Positions 6,353 to 22,634 of a DNA stretch of 25,171 nt are shown piece after piece. Each line of letters opens with the position of its first letter. Positions within the stretch are counted from its first letter, which is position 1. The position numbers and the translations under genes were made by a program. The stretch lies in contig NZ_AQOR01000041.1 in NCBI RefSeq assembly GCF_009846755.1, positions 1 to 25,171 of the forward strand, given 5' to 3'. The notes under the pieces are model-generated. The model searched no databases and was not told the DNA's origin. It saw only the letters and a list, made by a program, of their open reading frames with translations. This stretch comes from Alcanivorax sp. S71-1-4. Lineage in GTDB: Bacteria > Pseudomonadota > Gammaproteobacteria > Pseudomonadales > Alcanivoracaceae.

Positions 6353-6612
6353 CACACTACTCCCTGTTTCGTTATCACTTTCGTCAGGTGGAACCTGCCC
6401 GCCGCGCGGCGGCGGACGGTCTGGGTCACCGGGGTGAACGCCAGCTTGCCGGCTCACAGGCAGTGGCCGGTGTTGAACGGATCGGCAATCACGGCCAGGC
6501 CAGTTCATTGCACACACCGCTCTCCACCGGCGTACCTGTGTCACGCCAGTCACCAGCCACCGTCAGCGGCCAGCGCGGCGGACAGGCTCCGGGTTTGAGA
6601 TTTTTTGCATGG

Positions 6613-6660
6613 GTAACCGCCATGTGGGGAGTCGAACCCCGGCCCTCCGGCCTTCCCTGT
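6613..6660 (-). other. tRNA 3'-half-like fragment (T-arm GGGGTTCGACTCCCC plus pseudo-acceptor) with no matching 5' half
   Basis: Minus-strand read: GAAGGCCGGAGGGCCGGGGTTCGACTCCCCACATGGCGG. Canonical T-loop TTCGACT flanked by GGGG/CCCC. No complementary acceptor 5' strand upstream. Confidence 0.4.
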
Positions 6661-6678
6661 CGCTACGTGCTGTAGCAG

Positions 6679-6750
6679 GTGCTATCACGGGACTCGAACC
6701 CGTGGCCCGCAGGCATGGCCTGCTGCTCTACCCGGCTGAGCTAGATAGCC
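6679..6750 (-). tRNA. tRNA-like gene, anticodon region CAT, but irregular: G1·A72 mismatch, 5-nt anticodon loop, no encoded CCA. Possible pseudo-tRNA or integration-site remnant.
   Basis: Minus strand: GGCTATC-TA-GCTC-AGCCGGGTA-GAGC-A-GCAGG-CCATG-CCTGC-GGGCC-ACGGG-TTCGAGT-CCCGT-GATAGCA-C. D-arm, variable loop and T-arm are canonical. Anticodon stem is perfect but the loop is only 5 nt. Confidence 0.45.
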
Positions 6751-6910
6751 TGTTCGCGCCGCAATGACGACCGGTACACGGCCAGCCAGGGGCCGCCGCG
6801 CCAGGCTGGTACAGAACCAGCGCCGCTGTTCGCCATCGACAACGTCGAACCTGTTTGCGGAACAGGGCGCGCGCCCTGCTCCGGCATCTGTGTGCGCATG
6901 ACGCGCAGGC

Positions 6911-6948
6911 AAAAAAAAGCCCGGAAGGTTTTGCCTTCCGGGCTTTTT
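6911..6948. terminator. bidirectional rho-independent terminator (A8 - 10-bp stem GCCCGGAAGG/CCTTCCGGGC - T5); not adjacent to any CDS
   Basis: aaaaaaaaGCCCGGAAGGttttgCCTTCCGGGCttttt. A sequence-related second hairpin follows at 6958-6979. Confidence 0.6.
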
Positions 6949-6957
6949 CAGATGCAA

Positions 6958-6979
6958 CCGGGAAGGCAGCGCCTTCCCG
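6958..6979. repeat. second REP-like hairpin (CCGGGAAGGC agc GCCTTCCCG), related in sequence to the preceding terminator stem
   Basis: Shares the CCGGGAAGG / CCTTCCCGG core with the 6919-6943 stem. Tandem related palindromes. Confidence 0.45.
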
Positions 6980-7285
6980 ACTGAAAGACGCACGTTTAAC
7001 GCTGTACTGCCACCTCATTCATGGCGCACGGCCGCACACCGCTGTCGATGCAGCGTGGCTGGCTGTGCTGGATTACCGTGTGTCTTTGCATAATGTGTTG
7101 ATCACTGTGCTGGTAAAAATCAGGGCGGCAAGAATACGCCTGGCGTGTAAGTTGTCAACCATAAAACGCTGATCAATTTCAAACAGCAGTTTGATTTTTC
7201 CGTCCGGACCGCCACCGCGACGCTTGATGCGCCTCGGCAAAACAGGCAACCTCGCCAGGTCTTCCGTCAGCCAGGACCCGGTCCC

Positions 7286-8434
7286 ATGCTCCGCAGCAAA
7301 CTGCCCGACCTGGGCATCACTATCTTTACCCGCATGACGCAACTGGCGCAGGAAACCGGCGCCATCAATCTGTCGCAGGGCTTCCCCGACTTTGCGCCGC
7401 CGGCCGCGTTGCTGGAGGCTGCCGCCCGGCATCTGCGCGACGGACAGAACCAGTACGCGCCGATGATCGGCATCGCTCCGTTGCGCGAACAAGTGGCACG
7501 CCAGATTGCCCGGCGTCATGGACGGCAGCTCGACAGCCAGCACGAAGTCACCATCGTGCCCGGCGCCACCGAGGCGCTGTTCTGCGCCATCCAGGCGCTG
7601 GTGCAACCGGGTGACGAGGTGATCCTGCTCGACCCCAGCTACGACAGTTACGCCCCCGCCGTCCACCTGGCCGGTGGGCGGTGCGTACACGTGCCCCTGC
7701 AACAACCGGATTTCTCGATCGACTGGCAGCGGTTGCAGGAGGCGTTCTCGCCACGTACCCGGCTGCTGGTCATCAACTCGCCGCACAACCCCAGCGGCGC
7801 ACTCATCACCCGCGCCGATCTGGACCGGCTCGCGGCGCTGCTGCGTGACACCCATGCCCTGCTGCTCTCCGACGAGGTCTACGAGCATCTGATCTACGAT
7901 GGCGCACAGCATGCCAGCGTGCTCGCGCACGACGAGCTGTACCCGCGTGCCCTGGTGGTCAGTTCGTTCGGCAAGACGTACCACGTCACGGGCTGGAAAA
8001 CCGGCTACGTGGCCGCGCCACCGACGCTCACCGCCGAGCTGCGCAAGGTGCACCAGTTCGTCAGTTTCTGTGGCGTGACACCGTTACAGCATGCCCTGGC
8101 GGACTTCATGGCCGCGCACCCGGAACATCTCGACGAGCTGCCACATTTTTATCAGGCCAAGCGCGACCTGTTCTGCCAGCTGATCGGGCCCTCGCCCCTG
8201 CGCCATGTGCCGACACCCGGCACCTATTTCCAGCTTGCCGATTACCGCGCCATCCGCGACGATCTGGACGACGTGGCGATGGCCGAGTGGCTCACCCGTG
8301 AAGCCGGCGTGGCGGCCATCCCGATTTCCGTGTTCTACCGCGAACCGCCGAAGGGCCTGCGCCTGGTCCGCTTCTGCTTCGCCAAACAGGACCAGACCCT
8401 GCAACAGGCTGCCGAGAGGTTGTGTGCGCTATGA
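7286..8434 (+). CDS. ybdL: PLP-dependent aminotransferase, methionine aminotransferase YbdL-like
   Basis: 382 aa, colinear with E. coli YbdL from the N-terminus (SKLPDLGITIFTRMTQLAQETGAINLSQGFPDF...). PLP lysine context SSFGKTYHVTGWKTGY. Confidence 0.9.
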   Translation: MLRSKLPDLGITIFTRMTQLAQETGAINLSQGFPDFAPPAALLEAAARHLRDGQNQYAPMIGIAPLREQVARQIARRHGRQLDSQHEVTIVPGATEALFCAIQALVQPGDEVILLDPSYDSYAPAVHLAGGRCVHVPLQQPDFSIDWQRLQEAFSPRTRLLVINSPHNPSGALITRADLDRLAALLRDTHALLLSDEVYEHLIYDGAQHASVLAHDELYPRALVVSSFGKTYHVTGWKTGYVAAPPTLTAELRKVHQFVSFCGVTPLQHALADFMAAHPEHLDELPHFYQAKRDLFCQLIGPSPLRHVPTPGTYFQLADYRAIRDDLDDVAMAEWLTREAGVAAIPISVFYREPPKGLRLVRFCFAKQDQTLQQAAERLCAL

Positions 8435-9204
8435 ATGATCTGACGCTGGCGCTGGTGCAGACCACCCTGCACTGGGAAGACCACACCGCCAACCTGAGCG
8501 ATTTCGATGCGCTGCTGCCGGCTGCACAAGGCGCCGATGTGGTGATCCTGCCGGAAATGTTCACCACCGGTTTTTCCATGGCGCCGGAGCGGCTGGCCGA
8601 AGCCGCTGACGGCCCGACCCGCGACTGGCTGCTCGGCCACGCCCGCGCACTGGATGCCGCCATCACCGGCAGCGTGATCGTGCGCACCGACAGCGGCCAG
8701 TACGTCAACCGCCTGTACTGGGCGCAGCCGGACGGCACCCTGCTGCATTACGACAAACGCCACCTGTTCCGCATGGCCGGCGAACACGAACACTATGCCG
8801 CCGGCACGCAGCAGCTTGCGCTCACCTGGCGCGGCTGGCGCATTCGTCCACTGATCTGCTACGACCTGCGGTTCCCGGTGTGGAGCCGCGCCAGCGACAC
8901 CGACCTGCTGTTGTACGTCGCCAACTGGCCGGCGCCACGCCGACTGCACTGGCTGCGCCTGCTGGCCGCCCGCGGCATCGAGAACCTGTGCTACAGCGTC
9001 GGCGTCAACCGCATCGGCGACGACGGCAAGGGCGTGCCACACAGCGGCGATTCGGTGGTGTGTGATTTCCAGGGCGAGACCCTGCTCGACGCTGAAAGCG
9101 AAGACGGTGTATTCCACACCACACTGTCTGCCAGCGCGCTGCAACAGTATCGCGAACGCTTCCCGGCGTGGCGCGACGCCGACCGCTTTACCCTCACGCC
9201 GTGA
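8431..9204 (+). CDS. yafV: carbon-nitrogen hydrolase (nitrilase superfamily), omega-amidase YafV-like
   Basis: ATG at 8431 overlaps the ybdL stop (ATGA). Nit-family motifs ([11 protein letters not shown], ...[17 protein letters not shown]..., [13 protein letters not shown]) matching E. coli YafV. Confidence 0.85.
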
Positions 9205-9731
9205 TTCATCCGATCCTGCGCATGGGGGATGCGCGCCTGCACCGCGTGGCCGAACCGGTCACCGCCTTTGACACTCCGGCGCTGCACGCCCTGGTGGCCG
9301 ATCTGTTCGACACCATGGCCGCCGCCAACGGCGCCGGCCTGGCCGCGCCGCAGATCGGCGTTAATCTGCGCGTGGTGATTTTCGGCATCGACCACAACCC
9401 GCGTTATCCGGCGGCGCCACCCGTGCCACGCACCGTGCTCGTCAATCCGGTGCTGACACCGCTGACCGACGAGCAGGAAGAAGACTGGGAAGGCTGCCTG
9501 TCGGTACCCGGCCTGCGCGGGCGGGTGCCGCGCATCACGCGGCTGCGCTACACCGGACATGATCAGCACGGCCGGTCCATCGACCGCACTGTCGAGGGGT
9601 TTCATGCGCGGGTGGTGCAACACGAATGCGATCACCTCGACGGCATTCTGTATCCGCAACGCCTCCGGGATCTGCGGCAGTTCGGCTTCACGGACGTGCT
9701 GTTCCCTGGCCAGGACCTGCCGGACGATTGA
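9201..9731 (+). CDS. def: peptide deformylase (likely a paralogous copy outside the def-fmt locus)
   Basis: GTG at 9201 overlaps the yafV stop (GTGA). PDF motifs [10 protein letters not shown] (motif 1), EGCLSVPG (motif 2), QHECDHLDG (motif 3, HEXXH). Confidence 0.8.
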
Positions 9732-9740
9732 CCCGGCGGC

Positions 9741-10610
9741 TCAAACAGCCTGCACAGGAAACTGCTCAGAGGGCGATACGATCTGCTGTTGTGCCGCCAC
9801 CAGCGGCAGGTCACGGGAACCGTCAGGGGTGGCCTGCACCAGCGCATACAGTGTGGCCGTGGCCAATGCCAGGGCCTGCGGTAACGTCTGCCTGGAGAGC
9901 AGATGCCCCAGCAGTACCGCCGAGAATACATCGCCCATGCCATTGGGCAGCGGGTGCCGCGCCAGGCGTGGCGTCATCACCAGCCAGGCACCCGTGCCGT
10001 CCACCGCCAGCGTGCCGAGCCTGTCCGCCGGGATATCCGGCGTGACCAGGCTGGTGATCACCACCACGTCCGGACCACGCCCGCGCATGTGCCGGGCCGC
10101 CTGCACCGCCTGGGGGATACTGGTCAGCGGGGCGTCCGTCAGCAACTCGAATTCGAACTGGTTCGGCGTGATGATCTGCGCAAACGGCATCGCCTGGTTG
10201 CGCAGAAAATCCGGGATCGCCGGGTTGACGAACACACCGCGCCCCACATCGCCCATCACCGGGTCACACAGATAACGCACCGCAGGATTGTCATGCCGGA
10301 TGGCTTCCACGGCCTCAAGGATCACCTCGCCGGTGCCGGCATCGCCCAGATACCCTGACAGCACCGCTGCCACCCGCGCCAGCACGCCGCGTTCACGCAG
10401 CCCCTGCAAGACCTCGCGGACATGCGCGGCACCGAACACCGTGCCGCGAAACTGGCCATAGCCGGTGTGATTGGAGAACTGCACCGTATTCACCGGCAAC
10501 ACCTCAAACCCCAGACGCTGCAACGGAAACACGGCGGCCGCATTGCCGACGTGGCCCAGCGCCACATGTGACTGGACAGAGAGAACAAAGGGCGGCACAG
10601 CATCACGCAT
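9741..10610 (-). CDS. pdxY: pyridoxal kinase PdxY
   Basis: 289 aa, ribokinase-like fold, colinear with E. coli PdxY (LSVQSHVALGHVGNAAAVFPLQRLGFEVLPVNTVQFSNHTGYG...). Confidence 0.9.
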   Translation of the reverse strand: MRDAVPPFVLSVQSHVALGHVGNAAAVFPLQRLGFEVLPVNTVQFSNHTGYGQFRGTVFGAAHVREVLQGLRERGVLARVAAVLSGYLGDAGTGEVILEAVEAIRHDNPAVRYLCDPVMGDVGRGVFVNPAIPDFLRNQAMPFAQIITPNQFEFELLTDAPLTSIPQAVQAARHMRGRGPDVVVITSLVTPDIPADRLGTLAVDGTGAWLVMTPRLARHPLPNGMGDVFSAVLLGHLLSRQTLPQALALATATLYALVQATPDGSRDLPLVAAQQQIVSPSEQFPVQAV

Positions 10611-10799
10611 CAGTCGGGCAACTCCGCATACAGATCATCGGCGCTCAGCATAGCCGATTCGCCGGACACGGCGCATTCATCGGTCCGTCGCCTATCCCCC
10701 TCGCCGAACGCCTATACTGCGAAGCAGTGCGCACCCGCGTACCATTGTTGTTTCATTATCATCGTTGAGCCCTGGGGGGCTCTTTCAAAAGGGGGTTTC

Positions 10800-11666
10800 A
10801 TGCACCACGTTTCCCGGACCGGGCCGAGTGCCCGGCGGCATCGCCATGTTCTGTGTTTTCTGATCCCGGCCCTGACACTGGCCGCCTGCGGCGGCGACAG
10901 CAGCCGCCGTCACAGTGAGCGCCAGCTCAACGAGACCAGCGCACCGCTGGCGCTGCGGGCCGTCACACACAGCTTATTCGCCAGCCCGAAAATCATTACC
11001 TACATGCCGGCGCTGATACAGCAGGTCAGTGAAGAGCAGTGCAGTACCGGCAGCGTGACCATCACACCGGAAGACAGCAGCCCGGTCACCGACATTGCCT
11101 ACGCCGAATGCCTGGAAGACTTTGGCGGCATCAGCACACTGACCGATGGCACCCTGCACTTTGGCTACTCGGACGACGACACGCTGATCCAGGTCGTGGC
11201 GGAAAATTTCCTGGAGCATTCGCTTTTTCTGGATATCGAAGACCGCCTTGTCACCTTCGATGGCCAACTGGACTTTCCGGCCGGGCCGGCGTCACCGGTC
11301 AGCTATACGGCGAACGGCACCTATCATCTGGTCCACACCGCCCCGGATACGGATGACGACGTACTGATCCGGTTTCAGGACTTCCAGATGACGAGCACTC
11401 TTAGCGGCACCGACCTGATTCAGTATCCGGGCGGCAGCCTGCTGCTGGACAATGGCGCGGTCATCACGCTGACCACCGGCGACAACGGCCTGACCCGTCC
11501 CGAAGACGCCATCTGCCCGAGCAGCGGCACCCTGACCGTGACCGCCAGCGACGGCAGCCACCTGGATGTGCTGTTCAGCGGCGAGGACCACATCGTCGTG
11601 ACCGTGAACGGCGTGGCCCAGCCCGAACAAAGCTGTGATGAGTACCTGGCGTTGATCGCTTACTGA
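10800..11666 (+). CDS. acidic lipoprotein of unknown function
   Basis: 288 aa. Signal peptide with lipobox L-A-A-C. Asp/Thr/Ser-rich mature protein with 4 Cys. AAGGGGG RBS 5 nt upstream. Bidirectional terminator downstream. Confidence 0.6.
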   Translation: MHHVSRTGPSARRHRHVLCFLIPALTLAACGGDSSRRHSERQLNETSAPLALRAVTHSLFASPKIITYMPALIQQVSEEQCSTGSVTITPEDSSPVTDIAYAECLEDFGGISTLTDGTLHFGYSDDDTLIQVVAENFLEHSLFLDIEDRLVTFDGQLDFPAGPASPVSYTANGTYHLVHTAPDTDDDVLIRFQDFQMTSTLSGTDLIQYPGGSLLLDNGAVITLTTGDNGLTRPEDAICPSSGTLTVTASDGSHLDVLFSGEDHIVVTVNGVAQPEQSCDEYLALIAY

Positions 11667-12254: not shown

Positions 12255-13142
12255 TCAGAGGCCGCACGGGGCGGCCAGCCGCGCCAGCTTGTCGGGGTTG
12301 CGCATGATGAAGATGCCGGTCGCACGCCCGGCCGCGTCACAGGCGAAGCTCACTGACGCCACGATATGCCCGGCATCGACCAGCAGCGCACCATAGCCCC
12401 CGTTGATCCATGTGAGGTGCCAGGTATAGGCGCGCCAGTAAAGGTTCAGCCTGCCGGCGATGAAATCCAGCACCGGCGCCTTGCCTGACAGCGGCGCAAG
12501 CAACGCCTGCACCTTGCCGCCGCCATCTGTTCTCAGCTCGATGTCGTCCGACATCAGCAGCGCCAGCGACGCTGTATCCCCCGACGCCACGGCCTCCTGG
12601 AACGCCGCCAGCAGCGCGCGCTGGCGCACCGGCGGCACGGCACTGCGAACATTGCCGTCACCCACGTGCTGCCGCGCCCGTGATACCAGCTTGCGACAGG
12701 CCGCCTCCTGCACGCCCAGCGCAAGCGCCACCTCTTCATAGGGCTGGTCGAAGACGTCGTGCAGCAGGTACGCCGCCCGCTCTCTGGGCGTCAGCCGCTC
12801 AAGCAACAGCAGGAACGCCACTGACAGGGAAGATGACAGCTCCAGCGCAGCGTCCGGTGCGTCCCCGGCCTCGGCCTGGAGCGGTTCCGGCAGCCAGGCG
12901 CCGACGTAATCGACCCGCACCTGGTGTGCGGCGCGCAGCAGGTCGATGCTGCGGCGCGTGCAGGCGGTGGTGAGCCAGGCCTCGGGATGTGCGATCACCG
13001 CGCGATCCGCCTGGCTCCATTTGAGAAAGGTATCCTGCACCGCGTCCTCGGCTTCAGCGACCGAACCGAGGATGCGGTAAGCCAGCCCGGTCAGGAACCC
13101 CCGCCGGGCCTCGAACAGCCGGATGTCCTGCGGCTCAATCAT
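12255..13142 (-). CDS. ECF sigma factor of group ECF41 (SigJ-like) with fused C-terminal SnoaL-like regulatory extension
   Basis: 295 aa. Sigma-2/sigma-4 regions plus all three ECF41 signature motifs: YVGAWLPEP (YVGPWLPEP), DGGGK, and C-terminal NPDKL (NPDKV). Confidence 0.85.
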   Translation of the reverse strand: MIEPQDIRLFEARRGFLTGLAYRILGSVAEAEDAVQDTFLKWSQADRAVIAHPEAWLTTACTRRSIDLLRAAHQVRVDYVGAWLPEPLQAEAGDAPDAALELSSSLSVAFLLLLERLTPRERAAYLLHDVFDQPYEEVALALGVQEAACRKLVSRARQHVGDGNVRSAVPPVRQRALLAAFQEAVASGDTASLALLMSDDIELRTDGGGKVQALLAPLSGKAPVLDFIAGRLNLYWRAYTWHLTWINGGYGALLVDAGHIVASVSFACDAAGRATGIFIMRNPDKLARLAAPCGL

Positions 13143-13775: not shown

Positions 13776-15941
13776 ATGATATCGACCCACCTCCGGCTTT
13801 CTGCGCTTTCTCTGGCCATGCTTGCGGCCACCCCCTTTGCCCACGCCCAGACGCAGACGCCGCGACAGTCCGGCGACGGCGCCTACCTGCTCGAAACCGT
13901 CGAGGTGCAATCCAGTGCAGACGCTTCCCGGGACGGCCTGAGCCAGCCCTTTGCCGGCGGACAGGTGGCCGAAGGCGGACAGGTCGGCATTCTCGGCACC
14001 CAGGCAGTGATGGACACCCCGTACAGCTTCACCAGCTATACCGAACTGTTGATTGAGGACCAGCAAGCCGCCAGCGTCGGCGAGATTCTGCTGAATGATC
14101 CGGCGGTGCGTGTGGCCCGCGGTTTTGGCAATTACCAGCAGGTATACATCGTGCGCGGCCTGCCGGTATTTTCCGACGACATGACCTACAACGGCCTGTA
14201 CGGCCTGTTGCCACGCCAGTACCTGTCATCGTCCTTCATTGAGCGTGTGCAGGTCTTCCGTGGCGCCAACACCTTCCTGAAAGGCGCCGCGCCCGGCGGC
14301 AGCGGCCTGGGCGGCGCGGTGAACGTGGTGCCCAAGCGGGCGCCGAACGACCCGATGACACAACTCACCGTCGGTGGCCAGACCGGCGGCCACGGGCATG
14401 CTGCCGCAGATATCGCCCGGCGCACCGACGATGGCCGCTTCGGCATTCGCCTGAACGCCGCGCGGCGCAGTGGCGACATGGCCATTGAGGGCGAATCCTC
14501 AGCACTGTCGATGGCGCATATCGGGGTGGATTACCGGGGCGACGCGCTGCGCGTGTCGGCCGACCTCGGTTATCAGGATCACCGTGTGGACGGCGGGCAG
14601 CCGAATATCACCATCGATGGCGGCGTGCCGATTCCGGACGCGCCGGATGCAACGAAGTCCATCGGGCAGTCGTGGACCTATTCTGATTCGGAAGATCTTT
14701 TCGGCACGTTGCGTGCGGAATATGACTTCGCCAGCAATGTGACGGGTTGGGCGGCGTTTGGGGCGCGGACCAGTGATGAAAGCTCGATTTTTGCGAATCC
14801 GACCGTCACTAACGTCAACGGCGACTATACGGCAAGCCGTTTCGATACCGCACGGGAAGATACCGTTGTGACGGGTGAAACAGGCGTTCGTGTACGATTT
14901 GATACCGGCGGCATTGACCATACCGTGAGCCTTTCCGGCTCCGTTTATGATCTCGAATCCAAGAATGCCTATGCATTTGGTGCGCCAGCCTTCAGCGGCA
15001 ATATTTATTCACCCGCGCCTGTCGCACTTGCCCCAAATACGGTGCCTGGCGGAAACCTGTCAGACCCCGGACGCACCATTCACACTTATTTCCAGAGCGT
15101 TGCCCTGGCTGATCAACTGAAGATGTTGGACGAGCGTCTTCTGGTAACGTTAGGCGTGAGATATCAGCGCCTTAAAGATTACAACTACGATTACAACACC
15201 GGGAACCGCGACACGAACTTCAGCTACGACGAAGACGCGCTGACCCCCACTGTCGGCATCCTCTATAAATTGACGCCTACCGTCTCAATGTATGCCAACT
15301 ACATCGAAGGTTTGCAGAAAGGCGCCCGCGCCGGAAATACCGCCGCCAATGTTGGCCAAACACTTGATCCTTATGAAACCAAGCAAAGCGAACTCGGCGT
15401 GAAATACGATGGTGGCCGCCTGGGCGGCAGCGTAGCCGTCTATCGCAGTCGTAAGCCCGTTGCGGGCCAGGACGCGAACAACATCTTCAAAATTGTCGAC
15501 CACCAGAAAAACACCGGCCTGGAACTGATGGCCTACGGCCAGATCACCCCGACCATGACCGTCCTCGGCGGCATCAGCTTCCTCGACGCCGATGTCGACG
15601 GCGACAAGGCCATCGGCGCCCCGGAAACCCAGGCCAACGTCAATCTGGAATATCGCGTGCCCCAGTGGCAGGACGTCACGTTCGACGGCCGTGTCATCTA
15701 CACCAGCTCGCAATACGCCGATGCCGGCAATCAACAAAAAGTGGATGCCTGGACACGCCTGGATCTCGGCGCGCGCTATCTGGTCCCGCTGGCCAACGGC
15801 ACCTTGCTGACACTGCGCGGCCGCGTGGAAAATGTCACTGGTGAGGACTACTGGGCATCGTCAGGCGGCTATCCGAACGCCGGCTACCTCACCGTCGGCG
15901 CACCGCGCACGCTGCTGCTCTCCGCCACTTTCGACTTTTAA
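13776..15941 (+). CDS. TonB-dependent outer-membrane receptor (siderophore-type)
   Basis: 721 aa. Signal peptide ...PFAHA-QT. Plug-domain motifs (e.g. VQVFRGANTFLKGAAPGGSGLGGAVNVVPKRA). 22-strand barrel-length C-terminus ending with terminal Phe (SATFDF). Confidence 0.9.
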   Translation: MISTHLRLSALSLAMLAATPFAHAQTQTPRQSGDGAYLLETVEVQSSADASRDGLSQPFAGGQVAEGGQVGILGTQAVMDTPYSFTSYTELLIEDQQAASVGEILLNDPAVRVARGFGNYQQVYIVRGLPVFSDDMTYNGLYGLLPRQYLSSSFIERVQVFRGANTFLKGAAPGGSGLGGAVNVVPKRAPNDPMTQLTVGGQTGGHGHAAADIARRTDDGRFGIRLNAARRSGDMAIEGESSALSMAHIGVDYRGDALRVSADLGYQDHRVDGGQPNITIDGGVPIPDAPDATKSIGQSWTYSDSEDLFGTLRAEYDFASNVTGWAAFGARTSDESSIFANPTVTNVNGDYTASRFDTAREDTVVTGETGVRVRFDTGGIDHTVSLSGSVYDLESKNAYAFGAPAFSGNIYSPAPVALAPNTVPGGNLSDPGRTIHTYFQSVALADQLKMLDERLLVTLGVRYQRLKDYNYDYNTGNRDTNFSYDEDALTPTVGILYKLTPTVSMYANYIEGLQKGARAGNTAANVGQTLDPYETKQSELGVKYDGGRLGGSVAVYRSRKPVAGQDANNIFKIVDHQKNTGLELMAYGQITPTMTVLGGISFLDADVDGDKAIGAPETQANVNLEYRVPQWQDVTFDGRVIYTSSQYADAGNQQKVDAWTRLDLGARYLVPLANGTLLTLRGRVENVTGEDYWASSGGYPNAGYLTVGAPRTLLLSATFDF

Positions 15942-15954
15942 CCTGACAACCCAA

Positions 15955-15989
15955 GCGCCCCGGTCAACGGGGCGCCCAGGCAGTCTTTT
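15955..15989 (+). terminator. intra-operon hairpin (8-bp GC stem GCGCCCCG/CGGGGCGC) followed by a weak U-stretch; candidate attenuator / processing site between receptor and PepSY genes
   Basis: GCGCCCCGgtcaaCGGGGCGCccaggcagtctttt directly precedes ATG 15990. The U-tract is displaced 8 nt from the stem, so partial termination at most. Confidence 0.4.
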
Positions 15990-17129
15990 ATGAAACAGAA
16001 CACACTGCGCGTCTGGTCCGCCGTCCACACCTGGACCAGTCTCATCTGCACGGCCTTTATGCTGATGCTGTGCCTCACCGGCCTGCCGCTGATATTTCAC
16101 GACGAGATCGAAGCGCTGCTGGATGACCACGCCTGGCAACCGGCCAACCCGGACGGGCCACTGCTGTCGCTTGATGCGATGCTGGCCGCCGCCTACGCCA
16201 ACCGGCCCGGCGAAGTGCCGCTGTTCATGAGTTTCGACACCGACCGCCCGGTGGTGAATGTCACCAGCGGGCCGACACCGGACGCGGCGTCAGGCGACAT
16301 GCACTTTGCTTCCTTCGACCGCACCAGCGGCGCGCTGGTACCGGCCCACGACGACGGCGGCGTGATGCATTTTCTGCTGCAACTGCATACCGACATGTTC
16401 CTCGGCCTGCCGGGCATGCTGTTCCTCGGCGCCATGGGGCTGTTGCTGGTGGCCGCCATTGTCTCCGGCGTGGTGCTGTATGCCCCCTTCATGCGCAAGC
16501 TGGATTTCGGCACGCTGCGCACGCACCGCTCCCGGCGCCTGAAGTGGCTCGATTATCACAACCTGCTCGGTATCGTGACCGTGGCCTGGCTGGTCGTGGT
16601 GGGCCTTACTGGCGTGGTGAATACCCTGGCCAATCCGATTGTCGATGCCTGGCGCAACCAATCGCTGGCCGATCTCACCGCCGGCTACCAGGGCGCTACG
16701 GTGCCGACGCCGGCGGAGATGGCCTCGCTGGATGCAGCCGTGGCACAAGCCATCAAGGCCGCCCCCGACATGACACTGCAATTTGTCGCCTTCCCCGGCG
16801 GCAGCTGGTCCACCGACTACCACTATGCGATCTTCCTGCACGGCAACACGCCGCTGACCTCGCACATCATTACCCCGGCACTGGTGGATGCCCGCACCGG
16901 CGCGTTCGCCGACATGCGCGAAATGCCCTGGTACAACAAGGCGCTGGCGCTCTCCGGCCCGCTGCATTTCGGGGATTACGGCGGCCTGCCGCTGAAAATT
17001 CTCTGGGCGGTGCTCGATGTGCTGACCATCATCGTGCTGGTCACCGGCCTGTACCTGTGGGCCGTGCGCCGCCGTACCGCACCCCGCGACGACCGCACCC
17101 CACTGGCTGCCACCGGAGAACGCGCATGA
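15990..17129 (+). CDS. PepSY-associated TM helix protein (PiuB-like, iron-uptake associated)
   Basis: 379 aa, multi-TM with periplasmic loops, the usual partner of siderophore-type TonB receptors. Stop overlaps the next start. Confidence 0.85.
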   Translation: MKQNTLRVWSAVHTWTSLICTAFMLMLCLTGLPLIFHDEIEALLDDHAWQPANPDGPLLSLDAMLAAAYANRPGEVPLFMSFDTDRPVVNVTSGPTPDAASGDMHFASFDRTSGALVPAHDDGGVMHFLLQLHTDMFLGLPGMLFLGAMGLLLVAAIVSGVVLYAPFMRKLDFGTLRTHRSRRLKWLDYHNLLGIVTVAWLVVVGLTGVVNTLANPIVDAWRNQSLADLTAGYQGATVPTPAEMASLDAAVAQAIKAAPDMTLQFVAFPGGSWSTDYHYAIFLHGNTPLTSHIITPALVDARTGAFADMREMPWYNKALALSGPLHFGDYGGLPLKILWAVLDVLTIIVLVTGLYLWAVRRRTAPRDDRTPLAATGERA

Positions 17130-17320
17130 ACCGCCCGTCACGCCGCGACAAGACACTCTGGCAGATTTTTGCTTTGCCTCTGCTCGCCGCCATCGCCAGC
17201 CTGGTCGGCCTGGTCGCAGCACTGCTCGGCGACGGCTGGCTCAATCTGCTGGCGTGGATCGGCCTGGCGGTGCCGGTATGGCTGGTGGGCCGGGCCATGA
17301 TGTGCGACCCGGAACGATAA
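17126..17320 (+). CDS. small two-TM membrane protein (64 aa) translationally coupled to the PepSY gene
   Basis: In the ORF track it is hidden inside stop-free ORF 16544..17320. ATG at 17126 overlaps the PepSY stop (ATGA). Two hydrophobic helices (IFALPLLAAIASLVGLVAALL; LLAWIGLAVPVWLVG). Confidence 0.55.
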   Translation: MNRPSRRDKTLWQIFALPLLAAIASLVGLVAALLGDGWLNLLAWIGLAVPVWLVGRAMMCDPER

Positions 17321-17410
17321 ACACTGCCTGACAACTCGCATCACCCGAGCGAGACTCTCTCGACAAACGGCAGTCGCCGGTCCGGTCAATGGCAGGATAA
17401 TACAGCGGTC

Positions 17411-19207
17411 ATGTGCCATCCGGGGCCGCCTTGTTGGCACACATCCAGTATGCTGTCCGGCATGGCAGCACACTCCGGGGAGCAGATTGTGTCCGGCAAG
17501 AATCACCACGATGCACTGATCGGCAAGATTTATGACACCTCGTTGATGCCCGGTGACTGGGTTGATCTGCTGGATACCATTGCCGGCTGGGCGGGCGAAC
17601 AGCCGGACGCGTCCGGCGACGCCAGTGTGGAGCCGTTGATCAGCCACCTCGAACGCGCCGTGCGCAGCAGCAGTTATATTCACGCGCTGGAGGACCGCAA
17701 CCGCATTCTCAACAGCATGTATCACCAGATGCCCTGGCCCATGCTGATGCTCGACGACCAGATGCAGGTGCTGGAATGCAACCCCGCAGCACACCGGGCG
17801 CTGGCCGACGGCCCCGTCCAGCTGCTGGCCGATGGCCGGTTGCGCTTCAGAGATGGCGAGCTACGCCGTGCACTCAAACGCGTCAACACGATGGCTGCAG
17901 GCCGGCAGGTGCAACTGCTGAATTCTGCCCGCGACACCCTCACCCTGCTCTGCTTGCCCGTGGAAAAGTCGGACGCCCCTGGCCCGGTGGCACACATCCG
18001 TACCATTGTGTGGATGCTCTCCGGTCACCACGTGGTGATGCCGTCGCCGGAGATGTTGCAGTCGGTTTTCAATATCACCCAGGCGGAATCCCGGTTACTG
18101 CACTTATTGTGCAAGCTAGGCAACCTGCAACAGAGCGCTGCCCTGCTGTCCATCAGCGTGCACACCGCGCGCACGCAACTGAAGTCCACCATGGCGAAGC
18201 TGAATGCGTCCAGCCAGGTACAACTGGTCAGTCAGGCCATGGGGCACGCGTTGGTGCAGACCGCCCAACCGGAGCAGGCACCGCCGGACACCGAGTACAC
18301 TATGAACCTGCCGGATGGCCGGGTGCTGAGCTGGTATGAATACGGCGATCCGAAAGGCCGTCCACTGCTGACGCTGGACAATCTGGGTGGCGCAGTGCCA
18401 GACCACACGCTGTTTGACGACTGGTACCGGCAACAGGGACTGCGGGTGATCCTTGTCATCCGGCCGGGCTATGGACTGTCCACCGCGCGGCGCGGGATGC
18501 AGTTTCGTGACCTGGGGCCGGACCTGCGCGCACTGTGCGGCCACCTCAATCTGTGCCGGCCATCAATGGCCGCCTATTGCGGCGGCGGGCCGTACGCATT
18601 GTGCGCTGCGGCGCTGGAACCCGACCTGTTCGACCGCCTTGGGCTGCTCGCCACCACCGTGCCCATCGAACATTTTGAACTCGACAAGCTGGACCGTATT
18701 CACGCCATGTTCCTGCGTTTGTTCCGCAGGGACCCGCGCCTGTTCGTGCTGGTGGGCCGGCTGGCACTGCGTGGCGTGCAGCGTGCGCCGGAAAAATATT
18801 TCAGCCGGCTGGCGCAGTCTCTGTGCCCGGGCGATCAGCAGGTACTGAACGACCCTGACCTGCTGGCCCGGCTGATTCGCCGCATGCGCCAGAGCCATTT
18901 CCAGGGGGCGCGCATCATCATTGATGAATACCTGCGCCTGCAACAGCCGTGGGGCGTGGACCTGAGCCAGATCAGCATCCCCGTGCTCATGTGGCACGGC
19001 GACGACGACCGGGTCATCTCCGTTGGTGGCGCCCATGCGCTGGCCCGCGATATTCCCGGGGCACAGTTCCGCGCCCTGCCGGGGCTGGGCCGTTTTCTGA
19101 TTTACCGGGTATGGCAGGATTTTCTGACGGCGTTGCTGGCGCTGCCACAGGCAGCGCCCGACCCACACGGAACCTCCGCTCTCCACGCCCCCTCTCCCAG
19201 ATCATAA
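17411..19207 (+). CDS. LuxR-family HTH regulator (N-terminal sensory region + HTH at ~aa 222-275) fused in frame to a C-terminal alpha/beta-hydrolase-fold domain with non-canonical triad
   Basis: 598 aa. HTH segment ITQAESRLLHLLCKLGNLQQSAALLSISVHTARTQLKSTMAKLNASSQVQLV. Hydrolase part starts at internal Met298 (MNLPDGRVLSWYEYGDPKGRPLL...) and has nucleophile elbow AYCGG (Cys not Ser), acid region MWHGDDDRVIS, and LGRF where GHF is expected. Start uncertain (alternative GTG 17489 after GGGGAG). Confidence 0.7.
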   Translation: MCHPGPPCWHTSSMLSGMAAHSGEQIVSGKNHHDALIGKIYDTSLMPGDWVDLLDTIAGWAGEQPDASGDASVEPLISHLERAVRSSSYIHALEDRNRILNSMYHQMPWPMLMLDDQMQVLECNPAAHRALADGPVQLLADGRLRFRDGELRRALKRVNTMAAGRQVQLLNSARDTLTLLCLPVEKSDAPGPVAHIRTIVWMLSGHHVVMPSPEMLQSVFNITQAESRLLHLLCKLGNLQQSAALLSISVHTARTQLKSTMAKLNASSQVQLVSQAMGHALVQTAQPEQAPPDTEYTMNLPDGRVLSWYEYGDPKGRPLLTLDNLGGAVPDHTLFDDWYRQQGLRVILVIRPGYGLSTARRGMQFRDLGPDLRALCGHLNLCRPSMAAYCGGGPYALCAAALEPDLFDRLGLLATTVPIEHFELDKLDRIHAMFLRLFRRDPRLFVLVGRLALRGVQRAPEKYFSRLAQSLCPGDQQVLNDPDLLARLIRRMRQSHFQGARIIIDEYLRLQQPWGVDLSQISIPVLMWHGDDDRVISVGGAHALARDIPGAQFRALPGLGRFLIYRVWQDFLTALLALPQAAPDPHGTSALHAPSPRS

Positions 19208-20275
19208 TCCCGGCGTCTGCCAGGAAAAGCTGAGCGAAACTGCCCTGGCCTGGTGAGGCGTATCGTCCATCTGCAACGCCGTGCTCAACCTGCCTGCACG
19301 GTACCCCAGCCCCACACTGCCGTGACGGGTGGCGGAAACATACAGCCCCGGCCAACGCGCCGGGTAGTAATACAACCGCACGTCCTGATAACGATCTATC
19401 CAGACCAGTTCGGCGCCCAGCGTGTAGCGCTGTGCCAACGTAGCCTGCCAGTGCAGAAAGGCTTTCACCGGCAGCCGCTGCCAGTGGTGCCGATTACCTT
19501 CGTAGCCGGTCATGGCAGCGCGCACATTGAGCTGCCCGTCGTCATCGTAGGCCACCCGGTCGCTGGTCAGGTCAGCCGTCGTGTAGTACATGTCGCGCCA
19601 GTAAATTCCGTTGAGCCCGTCCAGCAGGTGCAGGCGCAAACGATGCCGTGGATTGATCTGCCATACGGCATGCAGATCCAGCGCAGCACCCTGGCCACGA
19701 CGACGTCCTGTCGGCCGGTCCCAGAGTGAATCGCGGGTGTAGAAATAGGTCAGGTGCGCCTGCCCCTGATAATCGTCGTCGTAGGTCTCAATATCACCGC
19801 TGACCTGCCCGTCGATCATCTCCGTGGCATTGAGGAGTTGCAAACGGGTGGTCAGCGTCAGGTTCGGCGCCGGGAAAAATGTGTAACCGAGCGCCACCCC
19901 GCGCATCAATACCTGATTGACATCCAGCCGCAACGGCCAGCGGCGCCCGGCAGGAATGGCGCGGCCGGTCTCGCTCCGCCAGATCAGTTCGCTGGCGCTG
20001 CGCGAGCTCCGGGCAGATACCTCATAGCGGTACAGCGCACCGACACTCAGATTACCGTAGCGCACGCCAACTTCGGCCCGACCGAAACCGAGATGCTGCT
20101 CACCGGTCCTGAAATCCCGCCCCATGCCCCAGACCAGATCATGGACCGGGAAAGCGTCGCTATGGGATTCCACCCACAGCAAGGCATAGGGCTTTATTTC
20201 TGCGCTGGCAATCCGTCCATGGCAGAGCAACAACAGGCACAGTGCGCTGCGTAAAACGACACTCCACAGATACAT
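19202..20275 (-). CDS. outer-membrane beta-barrel protein of unassigned family
   Basis: ORF 19202..20392. Start placed at ATG 20275 (MYLWSVVLRSALCLLLLCHGRIASA-EIK...), a clean signal peptide. Mature ~330 aa with alternating amphipathic beta-strand pattern and many aromatic girdle residues. The upstream part of the ORF overlaps the lipoprotein terminator. Confidence 0.7.
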   Translation of the reverse strand: MYLWSVVLRSALCLLLLCHGRIASAEIKPYALLWVESHSDAFPVHDLVWGMGRDFRTGEQHLGFGRAEVGVRYGNLSVGALYRYEVSARSSRSASELIWRSETGRAIPAGRRWPLRLDVNQVLMRGVALGYTFFPAPNLTLTTRLQLLNATEMIDGQVSGDIETYDDDYQGQAHLTYFYTRDSLWDRPTGRRRGQGAALDLHAVWQINPRHRLRLHLLDGLNGIYWRDMYYTTADLTSDRVAYDDDGQLNVRAAMTGYEGNRHHWQRLPVKAFLHWQATLAQRYTLGAELVWIDRYQDVRLYYYPARWPGLYVSATRHGSVGLGYRAGRLSTALQMDDTPHQARAVSLSFSWQTPGL

Positions 20276-20312
20276 TGAGCGGGCCTGTCTCTCGTCACGT
20301 GTCATCACAATC

Positions 20313-20341
20313 AGAAAAATGGCGGCCGGAGCCGCCATTTT
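20313..20341 (-). terminator. rho-independent terminator of the lipoprotein gene (8-bp stem ATGGCGGC/GCCGCCAT, loop CGGA, then TTTTTC on minus strand), located between lipoprotein stop and OMP start
   Basis: Plus strand: agaaaaATGGCGGCcggaGCCGCCATttt. On the minus strand the stem is followed by a U-tract. Confidence 0.6.
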
Positions 20342-20360
20342 CATAACGCCAGAAGGTGTG

Positions 20361-22634
20361 TTACTGGATGCTTTCGAACGTACCGTCCACATAAGTGACC
20401 TTGATCAGGTTCGGCTCGGTGATGGTCGCGTACACCACACCACCGACCTGGATATTGCCGAACAGATCACCGCTTTCGTTGACTTGCAGCACCGCCACCA
20501 CACCATCCTGGTTGGTGAGAGTCACGCCCGAAGTCGTTACTTCATCTTCACCGTCTTCTGCTGACGGGTTTAGGGTCAACGGCGCGCTGATCTGCAGCGT
20601 CTTGCCGGGGTAGCTGATGTTGACCGCCACGTTACCGGCGGTCAGTGCCGAGCGGGAACCTGTGATTTCAATACGGCTTTCCTCCGCAATGCCCGCCAGC
20701 GCCACCGTGATCCGCAGCGAGAAATTGCCTTCGATGAACTCGCCGGCAGTTTCCTCGCTGGTCTGCTCCCAGCCGGAGTCACTGCCATCGCACATATGGA
20801 GCTCACTGCACCGGGTTCCGGGCACGCTGCTGGTTTCTTCCAGCACGTAACCGTTCGCGTCGGCCTCAAAAGCGAAGTTGAGCGCCAGTGCATTGTTTGC
20901 CGTGTCCACCGTACCCGAGAACGTCAGCGCGGCAATGCCGAAGGTGAATGTTTCGTCTTCCACCGCCTGCCAGGTGCAGGAGACTTCATCACAAACGTTC
21001 TCATACTCTTCATAACTGGTAGTGTGCAGCCCGCTGACATCAAGCCCCAGCGCCCCCTGCAGCGCCACCCCGCCGGCCAGATCTTCACCAGTCTGCGTAT
21101 CCCGTTGCGCCAGGCGCACGGTCAGATCGAATTCCGCACCGCCGGTAAAATCCTCTTCCGAGACGCCTTCGAACTCGTAATTGCCGGTGTCCGTTTCCTG
21201 GTCGGTCAGCGACGAGACCGTGCTGCCGGAGACCACCCCTTCAATAATTTCCAGCTTCAGCGCCGGCAGGCTGACCGCACCGGAGATCTGCAAGTCCACG
21301 GCAGTGGTTTCGGTTTCCGAGTAGACCACACCCGAGGCTTCCTCCGGATCCGCGCAGGCGTTGCCGGTGCAGTTATAATCCAGCACCAACGTGGCGCTGA
21401 GATCGGTTTCCAGCGCCTCGGCAACACCGCTCACACTGGTGACCGTGTAGCTGTCGTTAACGAACGTGACTTCCACTTCGGCCATGTCAAAGGTAACGAT
21501 CTGTGGGCTGGTCAGCGCTCCATTTTCTGTACGCTGCGCGTGGACTTCCGCAATGGCATTGACCGCATATCCCAGTGCCTGCGCAAGCAGCTCCGTATCG
21601 GCAGACAACAGTGTTCCCGCCGCCTCCAGCTCATTGGCGAATGCCTCTGCGCTCGCTTCCGTTATGAATGAGGTGCCCAGCGTGCGGACCTGGCTCACGA
21701 ACGCCTTCGCCTTGGCCAGGTTGGCCAGTGCCGCGGTGTCCGAGGGCGCGGCCTGAGTGAGTTCTTCGCCTAGCTGCTGCGCTGCCGCCAACGCCGTACC
21801 CAACGTCGTGGAGACGCCTGACAGATTCGCGCCGGACGTGGTCAACGCAGCCTGCGCCGCAGTGTAGATCTCTGCCAGGTCAACGCCGGTGCTGACGCTT
21901 TGCTGGCCATAGAATTGGCCGCCACTGGTGTTGATGAACGCCGTCGCCAGCTGGTCCAACGTTTGCCCTTCCTCCAGCGCGGCGCCATACAGGGCCGCCG
22001 CCAGCAAGGCACCTTTCTGAGCGTTGGCATCGGCCCCTTCCAGCGCGGTGGTATCCGTGATGTCCACCGCTGGCAGCGCCGTCAGTTCGCCGGTCACTCC
22101 GAACAGGTTGGCCACATGACTGTTGGCCAGACGGATCGCAACGTCGTTCAACACAGCCGCGCGGGCCTTCGCCGCCGCCAGGTGAGTCAGCGGCGTGACG
22201 TTGATGGACACGGCGCCGCCATCCAGCACCGCCATCGCTTCGAGCGCCATATTCGCACCAAAGGGAACGTCCGCGCCGAACGCCGCCGTCCCGCCTTCGC
22301 CATCGTCACACCCGGCCGGCACGTCGCACACCATGCTGGCGTCCGCGTTCCCCGTGATCGTGATGAGGGCCGGGCCGGTGTAGCTGAGATTCAGACTATA
22401 GCGGCCAGCATCATCCGTGGTGGTCATCTGCAGGGCTTCGCCGTCCACCACGCCGTCCACCACCGGATACACCGCCACATCGGCGTTTTTCAGAATGCCC
22501 TTGACGGCAGCCCCCTCGATGTCCGACGACGGCGCCGAACCGCCCGACCTGCTGCCACCCCCGCCACCACCGCAGCCGGACAGCACGACAGACAGAGCAA
22601 CAAATGAACTGACAAGCAAAGACTGTGCTTTCAC
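20361..22634 (-). CDS. large acidic surface-lipoprotein candidate (757 aa) with Gly-rich tether, N-terminal carboxypeptidase-regulatory-like beta-sandwich, Ala-rich helical region and paired-Cys beta-rich C-terminal half
   Basis: GTG start with AAGGAG RBS. Signal peptide with lipobox LSGC followed by GGGGGGSRSGGSAPSS tether. TTDDAGRYSL motif of CarbopepD_reg-like domains. Four Cys pairs (CDVPAGC, CTGNAC, CDEVSC, CSELHMC). Strongly acidic overall, few aromatics. Confidence 0.75.
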   Translation of the reverse strand: MKAQSLLVSSFVALSVVLSGCGGGGGGSRSGGSAPSSDIEGAAVKGILKNADVAVYPVVDGVVDGEALQMTTTDDAGRYSLNLSYTGPALITITGNADASMVCDVPAGCDDGEGGTAAFGADVPFGANMALEAMAVLDGGAVSINVTPLTHLAAAKARAAVLNDVAIRLANSHVANLFGVTGELTALPAVDITDTTALEGADANAQKGALLAAALYGAALEEGQTLDQLATAFINTSGGQFYGQQSVSTGVDLAEIYTAAQAALTTSGANLSGVSTTLGTALAAAQQLGEELTQAAPSDTAALANLAKAKAFVSQVRTLGTSFITEASAEAFANELEAAGTLLSADTELLAQALGYAVNAIAEVHAQRTENGALTSPQIVTFDMAEVEVTFVNDSYTVTSVSGVAEALETDLSATLVLDYNCTGNACADPEEASGVVYSETETTAVDLQISGAVSLPALKLEIIEGVVSGSTVSSLTDQETDTGNYEFEGVSEEDFTGGAEFDLTVRLAQRDTQTGEDLAGGVALQGALGLDVSGLHTTSYEEYENVCDEVSCTWQAVEDETFTFGIAALTFSGTVDTANNALALNFAFEADANGYVLEETSSVPGTRCSELHMCDGSDSGWEQTSEETAGEFIEGNFSLRITVALAGIAEESRIEITGSRSALTAGNVAVNISYPGKTLQISAPLTLNPSAEDGEDEVTTSGVTLTNQDGVVAVLQVNESGDLFGNIQVGGVVYATITEPNLIKVTYVDGTFESIQ

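Follow-up and report, generated by a model that had tools for sequence, protein, structure and literature searches.

The window analyzed here, a 25,171-bp contig of Alcanivorax sp. S71-1-4, carries on its forward strand a gene in which a transcriptional regulator and an alpha/beta-hydrolase are joined in a single polypeptide. The open reading frame (ORF), confirmed at 17411..19207 (+), encodes 598 aa; the database protein P0001, 100% identical to its product, is named 'alpha/beta fold hydrolase' by NCBI and is given 581 aa from a start at 17462. The original prediction, of a transcription factor with a LuxR-type helix-turn-helix (HTH) in mid-protein followed by a hydrolase domain with a degenerate catalytic triad, is confirmed as an observation, but its interpretation is supported in part only. 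Three residue numberings coexist, namely 598 aa (ATG 17411), 581 aa (NCBI model, ATG 17462) and 572 aa (GTG 17489). When the upstream region is aligned with that of an 89%-identical orthologue (locus L007), none of the three ATGs (17411, 17450 and 17462) is shared, whereas GGAG-N6-GTG at 17479–17491 is; the true start is therefore probably GTG 17489. The most likely coding sequence would then be 17489..19207 (+), with GGAG ahead of its GTG and 572 codons for amino acids, and the start in the public gene model probably lies 9 codons too far upstream.

The domain layout was obtained from a full-length AlphaFold2 model built from 44 homologues, with a mean predicted local distance difference test score (pLDDT) of 84.9 and a predicted template modeling score of 0.73; its residue numbers follow the 581-aa scheme. 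The model places in order helices at 6–89, a PAS-like sheet at 94–187, a four-helix HTH at 196–267, a disordered linker at 268–278 and a lidded alpha/beta-hydrolase at 279–560. The N-terminal helical region (17477..17728, +; helices 6–28, 30–45 and 56–89, also delimited by alignment with unfused regulators) contains a helix pair with the conserved motif LIGxIYxxxxxPxxW, then a short disordered loop, and finally a long helix that connects to the PAS domain. The following alpha/beta sensor-like domain (17741..18022, +) is assigned to the PAS type by the modeled strands, by Foldseek matches to VqmA, EL222 and LOV and PAS domains, and by weak Pfam PAS matches, that at aa 100–138 being sub-threshold. 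For the LuxR/FixJ-type (GerE-like) HTH (18047..18262, +), Pfam GerE (PF00196) matches aa 240–274 with 14.9–16.1 bits, under the gathering cutoff of 23.5, and is reached at E<=0.01 by 20 of the 44 family members (best 7.4e-5). When the family profile is compared with the PDB, the only HTH class matched is LuxR/FixJ, in the form of VraR, RcsB and DesR (E 7e-4 to 0.05). Residues 1–272 modeled alone (pLDDT 81.3) give as best Foldseek matches the PAS-LuxR factors VqmA (7dwm, 6kju, 6ide and 6ugl; E 4e-6 to 8e-4) and EL222 (3p7n and 8a5r), aligned over about 200–213 columns with probability 1.0; LOV and PAS sensors rank after them. The mid-protein HTH of the original prediction is thus borne out by model, profile and fold, as is the Pro/Gln-rich linker behind it. 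This Pro/Gln/Ala-rich segment (18263..18295, +) is fast-evolving and variable in length, and its pLDDT falls below 50 at residues 268–273.

Since both the HTH and the PAS domain score under Pfam thresholds, public annotation calls these proteins plain hydrolases. The sole annotation hint of the fusion is an automatic JGI label, 'pimeloyl-ACP methyl ester carboxylesterase/DNA-binding CsgD family transcriptional regulator'. A curated family name was also sought in NCBIfam, where the matches are all far below threshold (e.g. PcaD, polyhydroxyalkanoate (PHA) depolymerase and macrolide esterases) and none comes near its curated cutoff.

The C-terminal domain (18296..19141, +) is a complete alpha/beta-hydrolase with a helical lid, belonging to a subfamily marked by 'LPDGR...RPGYGxS'. 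Pfam Abhydrolase_1 (PF00561) recognizes it at aa 341–563 (E 3.6e-12, 46.9 bits for a cutoff of 25.8) and matches all 44 family members. Mostly with pLDDT above 90, residues 279–560 form the canonical fold with central beta-sheet, nucleophile elbow and lid, and Foldseek returns more than 1600 hydrolase matches. The closest solved relative is 9wlv (E 5e-16 by sequence, 3e-33 by family profile, Foldseek template modeling (TM) score 0.83). Alignment to 9wlv and across the family bears out the announced substitutions. At the nucleophile elbow, AAYCGGGPYAL faces AGWSGGGPHAL, so that serine is replaced by cysteine (TGC, 18578..18580, +; Cys390 counted over 598 aa and Cys373 over 581 aa, within A-Y-C-G-G). 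At the base position, GLGRFL faces GEGHLS, with arginine (CGT, 19091..19093, +; Arg561 in the 598-aa numbering) one transition away from the histidine codon CAT. At the acid position, GDDD faces GADD, and the aspartate is kept (GAC, 19007..19009, +; Asp533 in the 598-aa and Asp516 in the 581-aa numbering) within a conserved WHGxxD. A third departure, absent from the original prediction, is Asp-Asn in place of the oxyanion-hole His-Gly after strand beta3 (18377..18382, +, from the alignment). The window protein accordingly has neither the Ser-Asp/Glu-His triad nor the H-G (H-[GSA]) motif of an active serine hydrolase. A canonical Ser/His triad at shifted positions was looked for and ruled out, the alignments being unambiguous, and the histidine of WHGxxD was ruled out as a compensating catalytic residue, since it is invariant across the superfamily whatever the state of the triad. 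Invariant or nearly so are Cys373, Asp516, Arg437-Gly438, Gln481-Gly482 and WHG (581-aa numbering), which lie in the active site and the lid. The N-terminus of the domain had been likened to that of a stand-alone enzyme starting at an internal methionine; separate hydrolase genes of unfused relatives indeed start within a few residues of Met298, but this methionine is not conserved in the fused family, where the consensus reads ExTxxLPDGRVLSWYEYG.

The fusion is conserved far beyond the window. A word-indexed search returned about 80 full-length fused homologues of 516–614 aa and 45–89% identity, almost all from Alcanivorax/Alloalcanivorax and related metagenome-assembled genomes (MAGs), and these Alcanivoracaceae homologues are all single fused genes and not pairs. 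When one genome per species was scanned, 46 fused loci of the Alcanivoracaceae type emerged; a genome carries between one and three paralogues, in some cases as tandem copies. In an exhaustive hidden Markov model search of 1.84 billion cluster representatives (50% identity), 2,495 matched at E<=1e-30 and the best 150 were analyzed: 148 of these measure 552–650 aa, all but two of the 148 are colinear over profile positions ~5–557, and at least 145 of the 150 share the colinear architecture of the window protein. By these matches, the fused architecture characterizes a large family, in which the Alcanivorax proteins form one small branch. The ratios of nonsynonymous to synonymous substitution rates (dN/dS, Nei-Gojobori) between the window gene and eight orthologues are 0.067–0.150 for the hydrolase half and 0.090–0.159 for the regulator half, values that indicate strong purifying selection on both; the linker, with 0.13–0.52 in the four of eight comparisons with computable dS, is much less constrained than the domains. 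The retention of the fusion in independent genomes, together with low dN/dS, therefore leads to the exclusion of an artefact, a pseudogene or a recent loss of a stop codon, two of which, the sequencing or frameshift artefact and the stop loss, had been put forward originally.

Some occurrences of the fused gene call for separate mention. Contigs labeled as a Pedobacter sp. MAG (L031) and a Cellvibrio sp. MAG (L035) carry Alcanivorax-type fused genes at 60% and 49% identity, respectively, which probably reflects binning contamination and not horizontal transfer. In Alcanivorax sp. NORP25 (L014) and DG881 (L020) and in Alloalcanivorax CI.40 (L027), at about 5900–11400 of the respective loci, tandem fused paralogues, one with Cys/Asp/Arg and the other with Cys/Asp/His, are found on both sides of a gene for a short-chain dehydrogenase and a small ORF of no known function, an arrangement that suggests a paired or heterodimeric sensor system.

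The state of the active site varies widely within the fused family. A residue census of 151 aligned sequences (the 150 representatives and the window protein) gives at the nucleophile position Ser 74, Cys 22, Ala 21, Gly 12, Val 5 and others 17, with Asp at the acid position in 132, His at the base position in 118 and a full Ser/Asp/His triad in 67. The catalytic state follows the gene architecture: the 6 hydrolases encoded as unfused partners and the 5 free relatives without exception have Ser/Asp/His with an H-G type motif. In the 80 Alcanivorax-family sequences, the nucleophile position is Cys in 79 (the single Ser belongs to the distant P0083), the acid is Asp in all 80, and the base position is Arg in 56, His in 23 and Lys in one. 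The oxyanion motif reads [DE][NG] in 43 of 44 Alcanivorax-family members, and its histidine is kept in nearly all other fused representatives. On neighbor-joining (NJ) trees, which are simple distance-based trees without support values, 19 of the 22 Cys representatives, the window protein included, form one contiguous clade, and a separate clade has Ala. In the NJ tree of the Alcanivorax family, Arg occupies all basal and most derived clades and His a single nested paralogue clade, its codon being one G<->A transition from that of Arg. The triad of the window protein was therefore correctly read as Cys/Asp/Arg, but 'degenerate' misses that the cysteine, present in 79 of 80 sequences and defining the clade, appears as a selected residue marking a stable clade and not as decay. 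The trees suggest an order of events in which fusion was followed by Ser->Cys and then by HG->[DE][NG] and His->Arg, an order that is provisional because they are distance-based and lack support values. The repeated loss of the nucleophile from a domain that is kept argues that catalysis is dispensable and that binding is the conserved function. As a separate observation, the proteins of the Ala clade (P0104, P0114, P0122, P0124, P0126, P0143, P0159, P0178, P0191 and P0227) keep Asp, His and an H-S oxyanion motif, and can be regarded from their residues as pseudo-enzymes with an otherwise intact site.

Relatives in which the two parts are separate genes illuminate the origin of the fusion. A homologous regulator and, after it, a 'LPDGR...RPGYGxS' hydrolase are encoded by distinct genes in Marinobacter sp. 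DUT-3 (L057; stop/start overlap ATGCTTGA), in an Oleiphilaceae MAG (L062; overlap of about 20 nt) and in an uncultured proteobacterium (L050; ATGA overlap). Such overlapping pairs bear the classic signature of translational coupling, and a single indel would fuse them. A fusion origin is thereby upheld, but as an old event and not as the recent loss of a stop codon. Loci of Gallionellaceae and Betaproteobacteria (L049, L051 and L064) pair a regulator of the family with such a hydrolase in convergent orientation, and regulator-only Alcanivorax paralogues are divergent from Pfam-confirmed Abhydrolase_6 genes. The coupling of regulator and hydrolase thus recurs in independent lineages in fused, co-directional overlapping, convergent and divergent forms. 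The unfused regulators have, after the N-terminal helix and before the long helix, an extra domain of ~115 aa, which is absent from all fused proteins examined and whose place is occupied in the window protein by the short disordered loop. Additionally, unfused Alcanivorax paralogues of ~400 aa (L065–L068, L074, L076, L079 and L080) stand head-to-head with an Abhydrolase_6/thioesterase-like gene; these facing hydrolases are of a different subfamily, making a second, independent regulator–hydrolase pairing in the same genus. Tandem regulator-family genes were seen in L050 (4268–6684), L072 (3402–5846) and L040 (3398–6434), and in L040 a regulator-only gene lies directly upstream of a fused regulator–hydrolase gene.

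Upstream of the coding sequence, two blocks common to the window and L007, TCGACAAACGGCAGTCGC and GGATAAT (17366..17402, +, by alignment), are a possible promoter or operator. TCGACAAACGGCAGTCGC is an 18-nt block containing CGAC-N8-GTCG, conserved inside an otherwise diverged intergenic region, and a motif search of the loci found the CGAC-N8-GTCG block in the window and L007 only. A consensus scan upstream of the window gene showed no strong promoter. In other orthologue clades, 24 orthologous loci from three contexts share a sigma70-like TTGC(G/C)-N17-TATGAT about 35–45 nt upstream of the coding start, and this shared predicted promoter therefore points to an independent transcription unit. 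The sole upstream inverted repeat, TGTGCCA-N16-TGGCACA (17412–17441), was rejected as an operator candidate, not being conserved in the 89%-identical orthologue.

The neighborhood comprises, upstream on the same strand, genes for a TonB-dependent receptor, a PepSY_TM protein and a small membrane protein of 64 aa (13776–17320, +), an apparent operon in which the start at 17126 overlaps the PepSY stop as ATGA. Divergent from it at 12255–13142 (-) is a gene for an extracytoplasmic function (ECF)-type sigma factor of 295 aa, long for an ECF sigma, with the TonB/PepSY_TM operon downstream; L007 carries this sigma/TonB/PepSY_TM block too, plus a CMD-family gene. Downstream and convergent are an ORF resembling an outer-membrane protein (OMP; 19202–20392, -) and a gene for a 757-aa lipoprotein (20361–22634, -), followed by purE and purK. 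The OMP-like ORF has a faint DUF5723 match only, its stop overlaps the regulator stop by 6 nt, and, with 396 aa in the window against 358 aa in L007, it is probably shorter in reality; no Pfam domain was found in the lipoprotein. The OMP/lipoprotein arrangement is common to the window and L007 only. Unrelated neighbors surround the homologues at 71%, 69%, 59% and 48% identity as well as a Cys-clade outgroup; among the neighbors found are HI0933-like flavoprotein, SDR, 4HBT thioesterase, RlaP and ADP-ribosylglycohydrolase genes. All-against-all clustering of the flanking ORFs likewise gave synteny limited to clades, and prediction of a regulon from synteny was consequently rejected.

The reality of the gene, the conservation of the fusion, the fold, the identity of the residues, the selection and the existence of unfused precursors are established. 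The reading preferred here, with a probability of roughly 0.6, is that of a one-component transcription factor whose hydrolase-derived domain would serve as signal input; the sensor role, the role of the cysteine, the ligand and the target genes are proposed from the sequences. The N-terminal part would be a VqmA/EL222-like module made of a helical dimerization region, a PAS-like domain and a LuxR-type HTH. The hydrolase domain would descend from an enzyme gene once immediately downstream of the regulator gene and translationally coupled to it. After fusion, the regulator would have lost its own first sensory domain; the absence of the ~115-aa domain from the fused proteins is consistent with the hydrolase having taken over signal input. 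In the window lineage, the classical serine-hydrolysis apparatus would then have been lost (Ser->Cys, His->Arg, HG->DN), with lid and pocket residues still conserved. A small, probably hydrophobic molecule bound in the lidded pocket would be the input, the invariant cysteine next to Arg and Asp probably reacting covalently or by redox chemistry, and the resulting conformational change would be relayed via the linker and the PAS domain to the HTH, altering DNA binding. From general chemistry, a cysteine beside a guanidinium group is expected to have a lowered pKa, which makes such covalent or redox perception plausible. Several points weigh against this reading. The HTH of the window protein falls under the Pfam gathering threshold, the trees of catalytic states are simple NJ trees without support values, and the variable gene neighborhood indicates no regulon. 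In addition, an intact triad is found in about 44% of the fused superfamily, and the Cys-His-Asp triad of the sister CDH clade is potentially competent, so that catalysis may persist in many members and conceivably, through Cys chemistry, in the window protein itself.

The last point leads to the main competing explanation, a rather unlikely one, in which the window protein is a trigger or bifunctional enzyme: Cys would serve as the nucleophile of a C-terminal hydrolase or acyltransferase that is still active, with a thioester as intermediate and a thiolate stabilized by Arg and Asp. Turnover would then set transcription, as in PutA or BirA, or the fusion would merely ensure co-expression. The near-invariant cysteine and the invariant aspartate agree with this, as do the canonical enzymes that are the unfused ancestors, the histidine at the base position of one nested Alcanivorax paralogue clade and the Cys-Asp-His of sister-clade proteins, a triad that is competent in dienelactone hydrolases. 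Furthermore, D14, KAI2 and RsbQ are described as signaling via hydrolysis (bioRxiv 10.1101/2023.12.05.570042). However, the window protein has neither the general-base histidine nor the oxyanion-hole His-Gly, and large fused clades with Ala, Gly or Val at the nucleophile position still keep the domain, so that its conserved role cannot be catalysis.

An improbable alternative assigns sensing to the PAS domain alone and reduces the hydrolase fold to a scaffold for structure, oligomerization or partner binding. It would explain the degenerate catalytic residues, non-catalytic alpha/beta-hydrolase folds are known as interaction modules, and the PAS domains of VqmA and EL222 are sensors themselves; yet a pure scaffold has no need of (near-)invariant active-site and lid residues, the hydrolase half is constrained at least as much as the DNA-binding half, and the other sensory domain of the regulator is the one that fused proteins lost. 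Concerning targets only, and thus compatible with the other mechanisms, the original prediction saw in the protein a candidate regulator of the adjacent OMP/lipoprotein pair. A dedicated local regulator of these convergent genes is quite improbable: adjacency speaks for it in the window and in L007, but OMP/lipoprotein neighbors are absent from every other homologue clade and the more distant homologues lie in unrelated contexts, the pair is convergent and not divergently promoted, and the gene has its own conserved predicted promoter in orthologues from three contexts. As for the joining of two genes by an assembly or frameshift artefact or by a strain-specific stop loss, the overlapping pairs of distant taxa show what one indel could fuse, but the identical architecture recurs in ~80 independently assembled homologues and in 145 or more distant clusters, and an in-frame, length-variable linker lies between domains with dN/dS near 0.1, so that the probability of this reading is negligible.

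A one-component factor with a hydrolase-derived input is therefore retained, and it belongs to a large and unstudied family in which an old hydrolase probably became a signal sensor. A bolder version, tentative and short of even odds, would make PAS-LuxR-hydrolase proteins widespread but unrecognized 'receptor-enzyme' factors in which perception in the pocket is read out as DNA binding, and whose family spans the whole path from active, separately encoded Ser/Asp/His enzyme partner through fused receptor to pseudo-enzyme. In this version, the thiolate of the invariant Alcanivorax cysteine would have a low pKa and would perceive, by covalent modification, a hydrophobic electrophile or oxidant; aldehydes, lipid or alkyl hydroperoxides and acyl-thioesters from hydrocarbon metabolism are examples. 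No description of the PAS-LuxR-hydrolase architecture was found in the literature, the coverage of which was incomplete, so that this absence is not proof. The significance is several-fold. A family of transcription factors is filed as enzymes by standard annotation, in marine hydrocarbon degraders and in other Proteobacteria, and it offers a clean natural example of evolution from enzyme to pseudoenzyme after gene fusion. If the bolder version is true, the PAS-LuxR-hydrolase proteins would be a single-polypeptide counterpart of RsbQ–RsbP and of plant D14/KAI2 signaling. For RsbQ–RsbP, signal transfer from the hydrolase receptor to PAS has stayed obscure since the pairing was described; a fused form with transcriptional output, natural Ser/Cys/Ala/Gly variants and unfused precursors is a simple, reporter-ready system that could separate binding, hydrolysis and covalent modification as the signal.

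The comparison with known systems concerns each part of the protein. With VqmA, the Vibrio and phage receptor for 3,5-dimethylpyrazin-2-ol (DPO), and with EL222, a LOV-HTH protein, the window protein shares a PAS domain followed directly by a LuxR-type HTH in one chain, as found by Foldseek (E 4e-6 to 2e-4). Ligand or chromophore is bound by the PAS domain in these proteins; identity is only 12–16%, global TM scores are a low 0.23–0.32 and neither has a C-terminal hydrolase. On the hydrolase side, 9wlv of the actinobacterium Microlunatus sagamiharensis, deposited as 'pimeloyl-ACP methyl ester carboxylesterase', has the same RPGYGxS and xxGGGPxAL motifs, but it is a stand-alone protein with canonical Ser/Asp/His and the HG motif, and its entry shows no characterized function. 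Among Cys-nucleophile hydrolases, dienelactone hydrolase (DLH) and PHA synthase also have a Cys elbow and an Asp acid, but they keep the catalytic histidine. The window protein is not a member of these families: the DLH match is weak and limited to 2 of 44 family members, and the dienelactone-type Cys-His-Asp triad is absent, Arg replacing the histidine in the window protein as it does in 56 of the 80 family sequences.

Small-molecule receptors provide the closest functional parallels. GID1 is a pseudo-enzyme receptor without the catalytic histidine. D14, KAI2 and GID1 use, like the protein proposed here, a lidded alpha/beta-hydrolase fold as a receptor, and the histidine is lost from GID1 as from the window protein; in contrast, they belong to other subfamilies, have Ser and not Cys as nucleophile in all cases, and recruit partner proteins (F-box, DELLA) instead of being covalently joined to a DNA-binding domain. 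D14, KAI2 and RsbQ are covalently modified by ligand (bioRxiv 10.1101/2023.12.05.570042). RsbQ and the PAS domain of RsbP form in Bacillus subtilis a 'bipartite sensing module' with 45 homologous pairs, defined by a hydrolase gene immediately upstream of a separate gene with an N-terminal PAS domain, and with PPM phosphatase, histidine kinase or GGDEF outputs but no HTH (Nadezhdin, Brody & Price 2011, PMC3183031). The likeness lies in a hydrolase that is genetically coupled to PAS, a helical connector and an output and that supplies the input, and in adjacent genes forming a module combined with different outputs. The differences are that RsbQ is encoded upstream and separately, whereas the window hydrolase is C-terminal, downstream and fused, and that RsbQ keeps an intact Ser-His-Asp triad. 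Membership of the RsbQ/D14/KAI2 subfamily was considered and rejected: RsbQ (1wom) ranks at about 60, its E of 1e-7 covering 74 residues where 9wlv reaches 3e-33, and is absent from the single-sequence matches of the window protein to the PDB at E<=1. Recurrent genetic coupling of hydrolase and PAS is thus shared with RsbQ–RsbP, but the RsbQ subfamily and the upstream separate gene are not. The pseudo-enzyme sensor of the original prediction is supported as an analogy to RsbQ, KAI2 and D14 and not as kinship, the protein being fused and of a different subfamily; by this analogy, it would work like the RsbQ–RsbP, D14, KAI2 and GID1 systems without being a member of any of them.

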